Of a stretch of DNA of 64,000 bases, positions 15,145 to 48,738 are shown in pieces. Position 1 is the stretch's first letter. The number at the start of each line of letters is the position of its first letter. A program made the position numbers and the translations under genes. The DNA lies in NCBI GenBank assembly GCA_040767195.1, contig JAXGPA010000004.1, positions 1 to 64,000 of the forward strand, read 5' to 3'. The notes below the pieces were generated by a model. The model saw nothing but the letters and a program-made list of their open reading frames with translations, was not told the origin of the DNA and searched no databases. This stretch comes from Syntrophales bacterium. GTDB taxonomy: Bacteria; Desulfobacterota; Syntrophia; Syntrophales; UBA6807.

Positions 15145-15188
15145 ACCTCCTGATCGGATCCGCCGGGCTTGACAAGCCCGCTTTTCTC

Positions 15189-15220
15189 AAAAAAAAACCG
15201 CTACCCTCGGGGTAACGGTT
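15189..15220 (-). terminator. attenuator terminator upstream of ilvB copy 1
   Basis: AACCGTTACCC-CGA-GGGTAGCGGTT stem running into a 9-nt U tract. Confidence 0.88.
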
Positions 15221-15245
15221 CCTGTTTCGTCCTCTCGCCGGAAGG

Positions 15246-15335
15246 CTAAACCATCACCCCGCCCCTTCTGAAGGGAATAATTATACCGATGATCGCAATT
15301 TCCAACTGCTTCGGGGATGGGGAAAACACTGCCAT
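15246..15335 (-). CDS. Ile-rich attenuator leader peptide MAVFSPSPKQLEIAIIGIIIPFRRGGVMV
   Basis: 29 aa, absent from the ORF track; 6 Ile in 8 codons; its 3' end is complementary to the 5' arm of the downstream terminator. Confidence 0.85.
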   Translation of the reverse strand: MAVFSPSPKQLEIAIIGIIIPFRRGGVMV

Positions 15336-15404: not shown

Positions 15405-15905
15405 TCAGGCCGGGCCTCCCTTCTTTTCCTTGGGCAGTGCGATGATGCCCGTTCTCGCCGCTTCGCGGATGCCCAGGTCCCGAAAATACTGGAGAAGCGT
15501 TTCCGTTTCCTCGCTCGTCCCCACGGCCTGAAAAACGGCGTAATCGTCTTTCATGAAAATCAGCTTGCCGTTGAAAAGCTCCATGGCCTTGAGAATATCG
15601 GCCCGGCGCTCCTGGGGAAAATCCAGGCCCAGGAGGGCCACTTCCCGCTGCAGGGACCGGGACGGGGCGAGTTCCTCTACCTCGATGACGTCCACGAGCC
15701 TGTCCAGCTGCTTCCGGACCTTGTCGGTGAAATTCGAGTTGGCCCGGCTCATGAGGGTGATCCGGGACGTGTCCGGGTCGAGGGTGGGCGCCACGCAGAG
15801 GCTTTCGATGTTGTAACCGAGCCTTCCGAAAATCCCGGACACCCGGGAGAGAACGCCCGGCTTGTTCTGAACGAGGAGTGACAGGATGTGTTCTTCGCCA
15901 TTCAT
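15405..15905 (-). CDS. ilvN: acetolactate synthase small (regulatory) subunit, copy 2, with the canonical Gly
   Basis: QNKPGVLSRVSGIFGRLGYNIESL, KQLDRLVDVIEV, REVALL, ARTG. Confidence 0.9.
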   Translation of the reverse strand: MNGEEHILSLLVQNKPGVLSRVSGIFGRLGYNIESLCVAPTLDPDTSRITLMSRANSNFTDKVRKQLDRLVDVIEVEELAPSRSLQREVALLGLDFPQERRADILKAMELFNGKLIFMKDDYAVFQAVGTSEETETLLQYFRDLGIREAARTGIIALPKEKKGGPA

Positions 15906-16076
15906 TGTACTCGCGTCTCCTTTTGCTTGCTCATCGTCTTGTGATAGGGTCTTTTACCGCCCCCGCCATGGGGGGCGCGGCGACGCTTCGAAACCGGTGT
16001 TTCCACCGGTACGGACCCGGGACCGGTCCGCTCCCGCCCGGAACCCAAGGCGGGGCGGCCCTTCGGGCCGCCGCCG

Positions 16077-17753
16077 TCAGTCCGATCTCCCGTAGATCAT
16101 TTCCATGTTCGATTTTCCGGGCGGGATAATGGGATAGACATAGTCCCCGGGAGGGACCATGACTTCCAGGAGATAGGGCCCGTCACTTGCGGCGAGGCGC
16201 TCGATGGCCCCCTCGGGCTTTTCCGCCCCGACCCGCTCCGCTTCCAGGCCGAAGCCCCGGGCCACGGCGACGATGTCCGTTTTTTCCCCGAGCTGGCAGG
16301 CGCTGAGCCGGGACCCGTAAAAAAGGTCCTGGATCTGGCGGATCATCCCCAGGTGGCCATTGTTGAAGACGATGATCTTGACGGGCACCTGGTAATAGCT
16401 GATGGTGGCCAGCTCCTGGATGTTCATGAAAAACCCGCCGTCGCCGGTGAAAGACACGACGTTCCGCTTCGGGTTTCCCACCTTGGCCCCGATGGAGGCG
16501 GGAAGGCTGAAGCCCATGGTCCCCATGCCGCCGCTGGTGAGGAGCCCCCGGGGGGACTTCGATTTCCAGGACCGGACCGTCCAGATCTGGTTCAGTCCCA
16601 CGTCGGCGACGGCGATGGCCGTCGGGGACAGGGCCTCCTGGACCAGGCCGATGAGCCGCCCGGGCAGGCCGCAGCCGTTGTAGCTGTTCTTCGCCTCCAG
16701 GGACTCCCGCTCCTTCTGGATCCTGTCTTTCCAGTCGCCCCTTTCCTTTTCGTCGACGAGGCCGATGAGCCCGGAAAGGGCTTTCCGGATGTCGCAGACG
16801 AGAGCCAGGTCCGCCTTGATGTTCTTGCCGATGGACGTGGGGTCGATGTCGATCTGGGCGATCGTCGCCAGGGGAGCGAACTCCTCCACCTTGGAGGTGC
16901 TCCGGTCGGTGAAACGGGTCCCCACGGCGAGGATGAAGTCGGACTGGTGGATCATCCGGTTGGCCAGTTCGAACCCATGGGTGCCGATGAATCCCAGGTT
17001 GAGGCCGTTGGCGATGCACACGGCTCCCACGCCCATCATGGTGCTCACGAAGGGGATGTTCCCCCGTTCGATGAGTTCCGTGATGAGCTGGCAGGCACCG
17101 CTGAGCTTGACGCCCCCGCCGATGATGAGGATGGGCCTTTCCGCCTGGTTCAGGGCCTGGGCGATGCGGTTCAGGATGCCTTCGTCCAGGGCGTGGCCGT
17201 TCCCCGTCTTCTTCATGGCCGGTTCCTCCGGCCTGATTTCCGCCTCGGGGCAGCGGCCCGCCAGGACATTCCGCGGAAGGTCCACGAGGACCGGCCCCGG
17301 CCGGCCCTGCTTGGCCAGGGAAAAAGCCTGCTTGAGGGTCGTCCGCATGTCCCTGGGGTCCCGGACAAGGAAGCTGTGCTTCGTGATGGGCATGGTGATC
17401 CCGATGATGTCCGTCTCCTGGAAGGCGTCGGTCCCCAGGAGGTCCGTGGGAACCTGGCCCGTGAGGGCCACCACGGGGGAGGAGTCCATGTAGGCCGTGG
17501 CGATCCCCGTGACGAGGTTCGTCGCCCCCGGCCCCGAGGTAGCCAGGCAGACCCCCACCTTTCCCGTGGCCCGGGCGTAACCGTCGGCGGCATGGGCGGC
17601 GGCCTGCTCGTGACGCATCAGGTAATGCCGGATCGTGTGGTCGATGAGTCCGTCATGAATGGGCAGGGTATTTGCCCCGGGATAGCCGAAGATGGCGTCC
17701 ACCCCTTCTTCCTTCAACGTCTCCAGAAGGATCTGTGCACCGTTTCTTTCCAT
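16077..17753 (-). CDS. ilvB: acetolactate synthase large subunit, copy 2 (Val-attenuated)
   Basis: FGYPGA, RHEQAAAHAADGYAR, TSGPGATN, GRPGPVLVDLP, SGGMGTMG, GDGG...NNGHLGMIRQIQ; AGGAG RBS before ATG 17753. Confidence 0.94.
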   Translation of the reverse strand: MERNGAQILLETLKEEGVDAIFGYPGANTLPIHDGLIDHTIRHYLMRHEQAAAHAADGYARATGKVGVCLATSGPGATNLVTGIATAYMDSSPVVALTGQVPTDLLGTDAFQETDIIGITMPITKHSFLVRDPRDMRTTLKQAFSLAKQGRPGPVLVDLPRNVLAGRCPEAEIRPEEPAMKKTGNGHALDEGILNRIAQALNQAERPILIIGGGVKLSGACQLITELIERGNIPFVSTMMGVGAVCIANGLNLGFIGTHGFELANRMIHQSDFILAVGTRFTDRSTSKVEEFAPLATIAQIDIDPTSIGKNIKADLALVCDIRKALSGLIGLVDEKERGDWKDRIQKERESLEAKNSYNGCGLPGRLIGLVQEALSPTAIAVADVGLNQIWTVRSWKSKSPRGLLTSGGMGTMGFSLPASIGAKVGNPKRNVVSFTGDGGFFMNIQELATISYYQVPVKIIVFNNGHLGMIRQIQDLFYGSRLSACQLGEKTDIVAVARGFGLEAERVGAEKPEGAIERLAASDGPYLLEVMVPPGDYVYPIIPPGKSNMEMIYGRSD

Positions 17754-17784
17754 GTGTCTTCTCCTGTTTTTTGTATCCGCAATT

Positions 17785-17820
17785 AAAAAAGCCGCATCTT
17801 TCATCGAGGTGCGGCTTTTT
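17785..17820 (-). terminator. second (distal) terminator T2 of the Val attenuator
   Basis: AAAAAGCCGCACCT-CGATGAA-AGATGCGGCTTTTTT hairpin with U tract. Confidence 0.8.
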
Positions 17821-17823
17821 CCG

Positions 17824-17860
17824 AAATAAAAAAGCCGCGGGCCTTTCGGGGCCCGCGGCT
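17824..17860 (-). terminator. attenuator terminator T1 upstream of ilvB copy 2
   Basis: 11-bp stem AGCCGCGGGCC-CCGAAA-GGCCCGCGGCT followed by TTTTTATTT. Confidence 0.9.
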
Positions 17861-17880
17861 CCTTTTCGATCTAACGTTTT

Positions 17881-17967
17881 CTAAGGCAGAGCAGCGGTCC
17901 CCGTCTTTACGACGACTACGACTACAGCCACGGCTACCGTGCTTGCCAGGGAATGTCTGTCAGCCAT
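17881..17967 (-). CDS. Val-rich attenuator leader peptide MADRHSLASTVAVAVVVVVVKTGTAALP
   Basis: 28 aa, absent from the ORF track; 8 Val codons, 6 of them consecutive; AGGTG RBS; 3' part complementary to the T1 5' arm. Confidence 0.9.
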   Translation of the reverse strand: MADRHSLASTVAVAVVVVVVKTGTAALP

Positions 17968-18040: not shown

Positions 18041-18070
18041 ATCACTACAGGACTTCTTTTTTTCTGTCAA
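18041..18070 (-). promoter_or_regulatory. putative promoter of the Val leader/ilvB2
   Basis: TTGACA-17 nt-TAGTGAT, the same layout as the promoter at 15365..15394. Confidence 0.55.
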
Positions 18071-47472: not shown

Positions 47473-48738
47473 ATGGAAAACGAAAAAACGAGCGAAACAG
47501 AATCAACGCCATTCTGCGTGGACGTTCGAGGCCTCTGGAAAATCTTCGGCGACCGTTCCAGGGAAATCCTCGAATCGGATCTCCGGAAAGAAAGCCGGGC
47601 ATCCATCCTTGAAAAGACCGGGTCGGTGGTGGCGGTCCGGGACGTGTCCTTCCAGGTCCGAAAGGGGGAGTTTTTCGTCATCATGGGCCTGTCCGGAAGC
47701 GGAAAGTCCACCCTGATCCGGCTTCTCATGAGGCTCATCGAACCGACGACGGGAGAGGTCGACTTCAACGGGGAAAACATTCTCGCCTACGACGAGCAAC
47801 AACTCAATCATTTCCGACGCTACACCACGGGCATGGTTTTCCAGCACTTCGGCCTCTTTCCGCACCGGACGGTCATCGACAACGTAGCCTACGGGCTGAA
47901 GGTCCGGGGTGTCGGGGGAGAGGAGCGGCAGGCAAAGGCCATGGAGGCCATCGAAACGGTGGGACTGAAAGGGTGGGAAAATTACCTCCCCGGGGCGTTG
48001 AGCGGGGGGATGCAGCAGCGGGTCGGCATCGCCCGGGCCCTGGCCACCGAACCGGAAATCCTCTTCATGGATGAACCCTTCAGTGGCCTCGACCCCCTCA
48101 TACGAAGGGAGATGCAGGACGAACTGATCGAGCTTCAGTCCCGGCTGCAGAAAACCATCCTCTTCGTCACCCACGATCTTCACGAGGCCCTGAAGCTCGG
48201 GGACCGCATCGTGATCCTGAAAGACGGGGAAATCGTCCAGGTCGGCCCCCCCGAGGAAGTGGTCATTTCCCCGGCCAACGACTATGTCCGCGAATTCGTC
48301 TACGACGCCTCCATCCAGAGGGTCCTCACCGCGGGCAGAATCATGGAGGACCCGGACGCCCTGATCTACGACTGGCAGGGCCCCAAGGCCGCCCTCCACA
48401 TTCTCAGGACATCCAAGGAGGACCACGCCTTCGTGGTGGACCGGAAGAAGAAGCTCGTCGGTCTCATCACCATGGAAAGAATGAAAAAACTTATCGAAAA
48501 CCGCGGGGTCGCCCTGAGCGAGGTGATGGACCACGCACCGGTCACGACAAGCCCGGAAACGATTCTCGAGGATCTTTTCCCCCTCGCCGCAGGGGCGGAA
48601 TACCCCATTGCCGTGGTGGACGAGAACAACCGGTTTCTCGGCGAGATCCAGATCAGCTCGATCTTCGAAAACCTGATCCAGAGCGGCGGCGCAAAAGAGG
48701 AAGACAAAGAGGAAAAAGAGGAGGAAACCCATGACTGA
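47473..48738 (+). CDS. proV: glycine betaine/proline ABC transporter ATPase with CBS domains
   Basis: [64 protein letters not shown]. Confidence 0.92.

Follow-up and report, generated by a model that had tools for sequence, protein, structure and literature searches.

The ilvBN/ivbL system is a classical ribosome-mediated attenuator, and tandem riboswitches and T-boxes have two checkpoints, each provided with its own sensor. For the delta-proteobacteria, attenuators were reportedly predicted by Lopatovskaya in 2010. The Corynebacterium ilvBNC leader consists of three hairpins (PMC11857589), and two further papers were used for comparison (PMC5794164, involving a single terminator, and PMC4833913). 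According to a citing paper (PMC4335068, citing Kwak, Choi, Weisblum 1991), the erm(K) leader of Bacillus licheniformis encodes a single leader peptide, behind which two intrinsic terminators are formed next to each other in the absence of induction, and the opening of two terminators by one stall therefore has a precedent. Leader terminators of Syntrophus aciditrophicus were listed before an ABC branched-chain binding protein gene and trpB, and, among 30 of the 36 table rows for this species, none is annotated as leader-peptide or tandem (PMC2965389).

The locus compared here with these systems is located on the minus strand of a 64-kb window (being the whole stretch of DNA from a Syntrophales bacterium that was analysed), between a penicillin-binding protein gene and ilvB2-ilvH2, which are followed by ilvB1-ilvH1-ilvC-ilvD. 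The site 17785..17860 forms the 3' half of an attenuator with a Val-rich leader peptide ahead of ilvB2 (Table 1), and Val and Ile seem to control the two acetolactate synthases of the window separately. The antiterminator assumed in the original prediction was identified: codons 22-27 of the uORF (17902..17889, strand 1) pair over 14 nt with the 5' arm and loop of the first terminator (named T1), and a run of six consecutive Val codons (codons 15-20, 17925..17908) lies directly upstream of these codons. The TTGACA element is also found upstream of most of the homologous leaders displayed, and the probable promoter is absent from the output of a consensus promoter scan. An Rfam scan of the 64-kb window returned only a tRNA at or above gathering score, and no aptamer, T-box or leader model. 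A role of the second terminator (named T2) as a translation switch was ruled out, the Shine-Dalgarno sequence being located 20 nt beyond T2 and outside its hairpin. Two observations concern the neighbouring genes: in several families that have only a single ilvB, it is an ilvB1-type gene that follows the Val leader, and the ilvB2-ilvH2 gap (window 15900-16080, minus strand) contains a GC-rich hairpin-like stretch of approximately 170 nt, longer than in relatives.

Table 1. Features of the ilvB2 leader and adjacent genes (positions in the window)
Feature	Position	Strand	Remarks
Probable sigma-70 promoter	18042..18070	-	TTGACA 18070..18065; weak -10 near 18047..18042; inferred
Leader uORF, 28 aa, MADRHSLASTVAVAVVVVVVKTGTAALP	17881..17967	-	Val run and GTAA-like tail kept in relatives
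Strand 1, antiterminator strand, codons 22-27	17889..17902	-	pairs with T1 5' arm
Strand 2, T1 5' arm and part of T1 loop	17848..17861	-	sequence, folding
Strand 3, T1 3' arm and six-U tract	17828..17843	-	alternative partner: T2 5' arm
Strand 4, A run and T2 5' arm, core GCCGC	17810..17820	-	sequence, folding, conservation
Strand 5, T2 3' arm and six-U tract	17785..17796	-	sequence
Shine-Dalgarno AGGAG of ilvB2	17761..17765	-	about 20 nt past T2 U tract
ilvB2, acetolactate synthase large subunit, first gene behind leader	16077..17753	-	TIGR00118 above cut-off
ilvH2, downstream of ilvB2	15405..15905	-	TIGR00119 above cut-off
Ile-rich leader MAVFSPSPKQLEIAIIGIIIPFRRGGVMV, single terminator, ahead of ilvB1-ilvH1-ilvC-ilvD	15180..15335	-	internal control

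The original prediction placed a second terminator 8 nt beyond T1 and held its 5' arm to be exactly complementary to the T1 3' arm, and both statements are borne out: a spacer (17828..17821) separates T1 from T2 (17820..17785), which ends in six T, and 17838..17829 (GCGGCTTTTT) and 17820..17811 (AAAAAGCCGC) are exact reverse complements. The T1 U run is also six nucleotides long (17833..17828), the first spacer base still being U. T2 is predicted by folding to be weaker than T1 (-9.7 vs -23.8 kcal/mol), with a stem of a 6-bp GC core and two weak upper pairs. The alternative hairpin that could form between the two terminators (the cross-pair), for which a length of 10 bp had been claimed, is extended to 11 bp by one U-G pair. 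This complementarity arises because T2 repeats the T1 stem core (GCCGC/GCGGC). Among 766 terminator-like sites in the same genome, the ilvB2 leader is the only one with an exact 10-mer complement just downstream (5 stem and 5 tail bases). Considering that loose downstream complements are frequent in this genome (60% GC), where a complement of -10 kcal/mol or better accompanies 60 of 225 strong sites, the single ilvB2 locus proves little, and the case for the cross-pair rests on conservation instead.

The best explanation of this arrangement is probably a relay of five strands acting as a ribosome-stalling transcription attenuator (a "domino" relay), as suggested by the sequence, the pairings, their conservation, the compensatory changes and the computed energies, which are themselves shown here. 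The uORF is presumably translated, and with ample Val-tRNA the ribosome would reach its stop codon and cover strand 1, strands 2 and 3 then pairing to form T1; a polymerase slipping past T1 would meet T2 (strands 4 and 5), folding unopposed. When Val is scarce, the ribosome would stall in the Val run, and strand 1 would capture strand 2 while strand 3 is still to be transcribed. Strand 3 would be left free and the polymerase would pass the T1 U tract without a hairpin; strand 3 would then pair with the emerging strand 4, T2 would be left without a net folding gain, and the polymerase would enter ilvB2. One stall would thus open both terminators, and the off state would consist of two terminators in series, presumably with reduced leak. 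RNA-library contigs bridge both terminators into ilvB2 in two of four runs (17000-17967 and 17000-17870), which is compatible with read-through and is no proof of it, such contigs showing neither strand nor ends; no meaning attaches to stretches that the contigs leave uncovered.

Leaders were collected from 233 ilvB upstream regions by means of a peptide rule and, following removal of identical leaders, comprised 102 Val and 32 Ile leaders; L139 was a false call as Val leader, leaving 101 Val leaders, and 10 of 129 order-level ilvB upstream regions fell in neither final set. Hairpins were assigned by a fold-based parser without a family motif, the register rule using the shared GG[CT] stem end, and five leaders set in the wrong register were left out (L093, L098, L107, L315 and L316, three of them from the Val set); by eye, four of the five keep the cross-pair core, L107 having one mismatch at core position 1. 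T2 was found in 99/101 Val leaders vs 0/31 Ile leaders, and a downstream complement of the T1 3' arm of -8 kcal/mol or better in 100/101 Val and 1/31 Ile leaders (156/505 and 10/155, respectively, in shuffled controls). The cross-complementarity that the original prediction expected in homologous leaders is there, the core being intact in all 96 Val leaders analysed and family-specific cores being present in the paralogous leader families described below. In the same 96 leaders, the five core columns of the T2 5' arm are 98-100% conserved, and the upper stem columns of T2 are 45-70% conserved with 5-6 pair types each. The T1 core is constrained by the coding antiterminator strand, and for the T2 core the cross-pair is the only such constraint. 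Two Val leaders (L018, and L038 from a Syntrophus sp.) are without T2, which is therefore dispensable in some lineages; L018 keeps a wobble-rich complement of the T1 3' arm where T2 would be. A DNA alignment of eight leaders yielded nothing additional. Permutation of T2 5' arms within the Val family was not significant (771/5000), the core being invariant, and the Val family alone thus offers conservation without covariation.

A scan of the same genome yielded 13 tandem terminator-like pairs, four of which, besides the ilvB2 leader, are located behind leader peptides: a Trp-rich peptide before trpE, a Trp+Phe+Tyr-rich peptide before a DAHP synthase gene, a Phe-rich peptide before a gene for an ABC periplasmic binding protein, and an Ala-rich peptide before an aminotransferase gene. 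Two further tandem hairpins (C1:+488624 and C10:-31098) were set aside as copies of one palindrome without cognate leader peptides; this tandem repeated palindrome with U tracts resembles a small repeated element. In relatives, T2 was found in 81/84 Trp leaders (from a set of 85 leaders in 89 regions, trpE being present in 96/121 genomes), 29/30 aromatic leaders (30 loci among 110 genomes), 21/25 Phe leaders (25 loci among 74 genomes) and 11/11 Ala leaders (13 loci among 121 genomes, two of which failed the T1 U rule). The cores are family-specific, being GCCGC in Val, mostly GCCGT in Trp and Phe, and GCCAT in aromatic leaders, on a GCC/GGC stem base shared by all families; in four of the five families the T2 core repeats the T1 core of its own family, Ala being the exception, and when arms are swapped between families, a Val or Trp T1 3' arm finds full pairing with an aromatic T2 5' arm in only 0-1% of cases. 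An unbroken cross-pair core is present in 79/79 Trp, 23/29 aromatic and 2/11 Ala leaders, and the 21 Phe leaders contain no broken cell. The Ala cross-pair has a conserved mismatch at core position 4, positions 6-10 being paired in 82-91%. In the antiterminator, core position 3 is mismatched, being paired in 5% of Val (101 leaders), 27% of Trp and 3% of aromatic leaders; in Ala leaders the antiterminator is matched, the mismatch being found in the cross-pair.

Several of these leaders deserve separate description. The Ala leader (own genome C1:- near 916536; L221, L256-L268) occurs in 13/121 genomes with an alanine-transaminase-like aminotransferase gene downstream, for which alanine transaminase is the best family, below cut-off. 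This Ala-rich double leader is a probable alanine-sensing attenuator, and no earlier report of an alanine-sensing leader-peptide attenuator was retrieved in a literature search. The aromatic leader (own genome C6:- near 48610; L222, L269-L298) precedes DAHP synthase as the first gene of an apparent aromatic-pathway operon. The Phe leader (own genome C7:- near 139206; L223, L358-L382) is located ahead of the ABC periplasmic binding protein gene, and two other genomes have a related Phe double-terminator leader ahead of an acyl-CoA-synthetase-like gene (L398, L402). A Leu-rich leader with a single strong terminator (own genome C6:+ near 176766, L224) is located before a 2-oxoacid:ferredoxin oxidoreductase gamma-subunit gene, and may possibly represent attenuation of a central-metabolism operon.

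Covariation in homologous leaders, proposed in the original prediction as a check, is seen as compensatory changes in Trp and Phe leaders and not in Val leaders, where the core is invariant. At core position 5 of the Trp leaders, the pairs between T1 3' arm and T2 5' arm are A-U in 55, G-U in 15, G-C in 9 and A-C in 0. The G-C cases belong to two genera in two families; a third family with this G-C pair was recognised by eye (L255, in which T2's own pair is broken), and an independent case is provided by Phe leaders (L365, L377, own T2 pair C-C). These data bear on the alternative that T2 is a duplicate of T1 serving as an independent, partly leaky damper; the cross-complementarity would then be incidental to their common descent, and template switching at inverted repeats may have renewed it. 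The repeated core in four of five families and the common GCC/GGC stem base would agree with such a duplicate, as would a reciprocal duplex (T1 5':T2 3') that matches or exceeds the cross-pair in strength in Val and Trp. However, in four of the nine Trp G-C cases the T1 5' arm is still U, and T2 therefore follows the T1 3' arm and is no copy of the T1 5' arm. Moreover, eight Trp leaders from six families have G in the T2 3' arm and A in the T1 3' arm, and all keep U in the T2 5' arm opposite this A though C would be possible with the T2 3' G.

The T2 5' arm also tracks the T1 3' arm against its own 3' arm in ten cells, the counts of cells with cross-pair held and T2's own pair broken, as opposed to the reverse, being 2/0 in Val, 2/0 in Trp and 6/0 in Phe; the same counts are 0/6 in aromatic and 1/12 in Ala leaders. 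Within-family permutation of T2 5' arms, in which kinship is ignored, reached the observed pairing in 0/5000 for Trp, 4/5000 for aromatic, 9/5000 for Phe and 115/5000 for Ala. The T2 U-to-C changes amount to only about four lineage-level events, all within a background to which 30-38% of leaders belong, and the Fisher value calculated for them is too favourable, related leaders not being independent. Cross-pair and reciprocal duplex were the stronger in 28 and 67 Val (n=96), 32 and 39 Trp (n=79), 24 and 5 aromatic (n=29), 8 and 3 Ala (n=11), and 12 and 9 Phe leaders (n=21), respectively; this test of selection versus duplication is mixed across families, and no support is drawn from it. As the upper stem, loop and spacer of T2 have diverged freely while its core is frozen across the order, and as an unregulated terminator would cap the induced level, we regard the duplicate as distinctly unlikely.

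A further alternative, which we consider highly improbable, is that the T2 core is kept for another partner, such as the leader strand itself, a protein or nuclease reading GCC-based stems, antisense termination or RNA stability. In Val leaders the duplex of leader strand and T2 5' arm is close in energy to the cross-pair (-11.6 vs -12.1 kcal/mol), T1 scores as a plus-strand terminator too, and a conserved stem motif of the rimP leader has been read as a protein site (PMC2965389). The T1 5' arm, however, is the preferred partner of the leader strand in 94/96 Val and 79/79 Trp leaders, and is also the one encountered first. A run of at least 5 A before T2 is absent from 29/29 aromatic and 21/21 Phe leaders, and two-way termination is therefore not conserved; nor does a single protein motif explain family-specific cores that track the T1 3' arm.

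Computed folding is in agreement with the five-strand relay. Before the T1 3' arm exists, the antiterminator has P=1.00 with the ribosome absent or stalled at V15-V20, its duplex having a median of -21.1 vs -15.2 kcal/mol in shuffled sequences (101 leaders), and in the window leader stalled at V18 a barrier of 17.4 kcal/mol separates it from T1. Once the T2 5' arm has emerged, antiterminator plus cross hairpin make up 0.69-0.99 of the ensemble for stalls at V15-V19 and 0.09 for V20. With all strands out, antiterminator plus cross-pair and antiterminator plus T2 are nearly equal (-44.1 and -43.4 kcal/mol, barrier 10.6 kcal/mol), which is in support of the earlier proposal that T2 would be disabled when the T1 3' arm is freed. 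Even with a stalled ribosome, T1 plus T2 is the global minimum (-48.0 kcal/mol, barrier 17.3 kcal/mol), so that read-through would depend on kinetics, namely on the trapping of the 1:2 and 3:4 pairings; a kinetically held read-through state is usual for attenuators. With the ribosome at the uORF stop the antiterminator is absent and T1 and T2 form together, as had been supposed. A separate anti-antiterminator (1:2) hairpin was not found, and without a ribosome the antiterminator still forms first (equilibrium model, from the uORF start).

Across families, the median folding gain of T2 is -13.9 to -17.6 kcal/mol with T1 formed, vs +2.5 to -0.6 kcal/mol with the T1 3' arm free, and P(T2), which is 0.95-1.00 for T2 by itself, is lowered to 0.30-0.55 when the free T1 arm of the same leader is present. 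Suppression of T2 by foreign T1 arms is in most cases weaker, with exceptions among core-sharing families: that by the Trp arm is stronger for Phe T2 (0.22) than for Trp T2 (0.34), and the Ala arm acts on Phe T2 about as on its own. These chimera controls are partly muddied because the GCC core is shared.

Both U tracts have at least 6 U in 91/96 Val, 74/79 Trp, 27/29 aromatic, 21/21 Phe and 8/11 Ala leaders, counts which lean high as the parser demanded at least 5 U. This retention in most leaders of all five families argues against a variant of the five-strand relay in which a single terminator works, T1 being mainly a protector while T2 terminates, or T1 being dominant and T2 minor, with no multiplicative gain. 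Such a variant, which we judge unlikely, would nevertheless account for L255, L261 and L376, where all five strands are kept, the T1 U tract is degraded and the T2 tract is intact, and where the cross-pair is therefore the only route from ribosome to T2. It would also suit the weaker T1 tracts outside the order (L405, L407, L408, L410), the leaders without T2 by rule (2/101 Val, 3/84 Trp, 1/30 aromatic), and the formal identity of the T1 3':T2 5' pair with the classical 2:3 pairing (PMC4615214).

Outside the order but within the phylum, 25 trpE loci inspected by eye comprised 7 double leaders, 4 single leaders, one spurious peptide and 13 in which the query detected no leader; these counts were made by eye as the automated five-strand scan missed five double leaders and mis-set L405. 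The query used for ilvB revealed no Val double terminator in the upstream regions of this gene at 25 loci from the phylum beyond the order. Four leaders from another family of the phylum (L420, L423, L428, L429) carry a different Trp attenuator, in which the stop is followed by an additional hairpin and only one terminator is present. Cross-wired double-terminator attenuators constitute a family for at least five amino-acid signals. Whether this modular "domino" attenuator is the standard amino-acid switch of the Syntrophales and some other lineages in the phylum seems to us about evenly balanced; on that view, serial terminators would give a leak of about the product of two leaks with full induction kept, the module would have been re-aimed at Val, Trp, Trp/Phe/Tyr, Phe and Ala, and one conserved mismatch per module (in the antiterminator in Val, Trp and aromatic leaders, in the cross-pair in Ala leaders) would set the pairing order.

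The arrangement in the ilvB2 leader is real and conserved and, as judged from sequence and modelling, most likely functions as a domino relay, two cross-wired serial terminators being added to the scheme of classical attenuation. A search of largely open-access literature returned no account of such an architecture, nor of leader peptides in the Syntrophales. Stacked terminators normally cost induction unless each has its own sensor, and the architecture suggests a natural way round this. It would be a compact case (approximately 120 nt) of a co-transcriptional strand-exchange relay, with compensatory changes across paralogous leaders, and a candidate design part for low-leak synthetic switches. 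The leaders also provide an initial survey of amino-acid-dependent control in syntrophs, which are starved of energy, with probable Ala- and pan-aromatic-sensing leaders and a putative Phe control of an uptake protein.

With the exception of a separate 1:2 protector, the ilvB2 leader has the testable marks of a ribosome-mediated attenuator: six cognate Val codons before ilvB2, kept in 101 leaders; an antiterminator exclusive with the terminator and exposed by the stall, as it forms at V15-V20 and not with the ribosome at the stop; and an intrinsic terminator between uORF and first gene. It shares with E. coli trpL-type attenuators the cognate-codon uORF, the alternative antiterminator and terminator, and the GC stem with U tract. 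In its topology, the T1 3':T2 5' pair corresponds to the classical 2:3 antiterminator (PMC4615214). Compared to the classical four strands, five strands are present here (1:2 and 3:4 against 2:3 and 4:5), adding one more relay step; the position of the protector is taken by a hairpin that is a terminator in its own right, and it would be the ribosome, in place of a 1:2 hairpin, that hides the antiterminator strand. The two adjacent intrinsic terminators behind one leader peptide are shared with erm(K), which differs by its drug-induced stall, long Firmicute leader and single gene family; the leader described here is Val-rich and precedes ilvB, with no MRLR-type drug-dependent stall motif or erm gene. 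The rimP leader of some Gammaproteobacteria likewise has tandem terminators with a conserved stem motif, yet it is without a leader peptide, its motifs are inverse and not copies, and protein control is proposed (PMC2965389). Unlike tandem riboswitches, T-boxes or Rfam-type elements, one uORF serves both terminators. In the same manner, the mgtCBR tandem attenuators (PMC3641672) have two termination checkpoints in one leader with a sensor for each checkpoint, whereas in the ilvB2 leader a single uORF would drive both through a shared strand.
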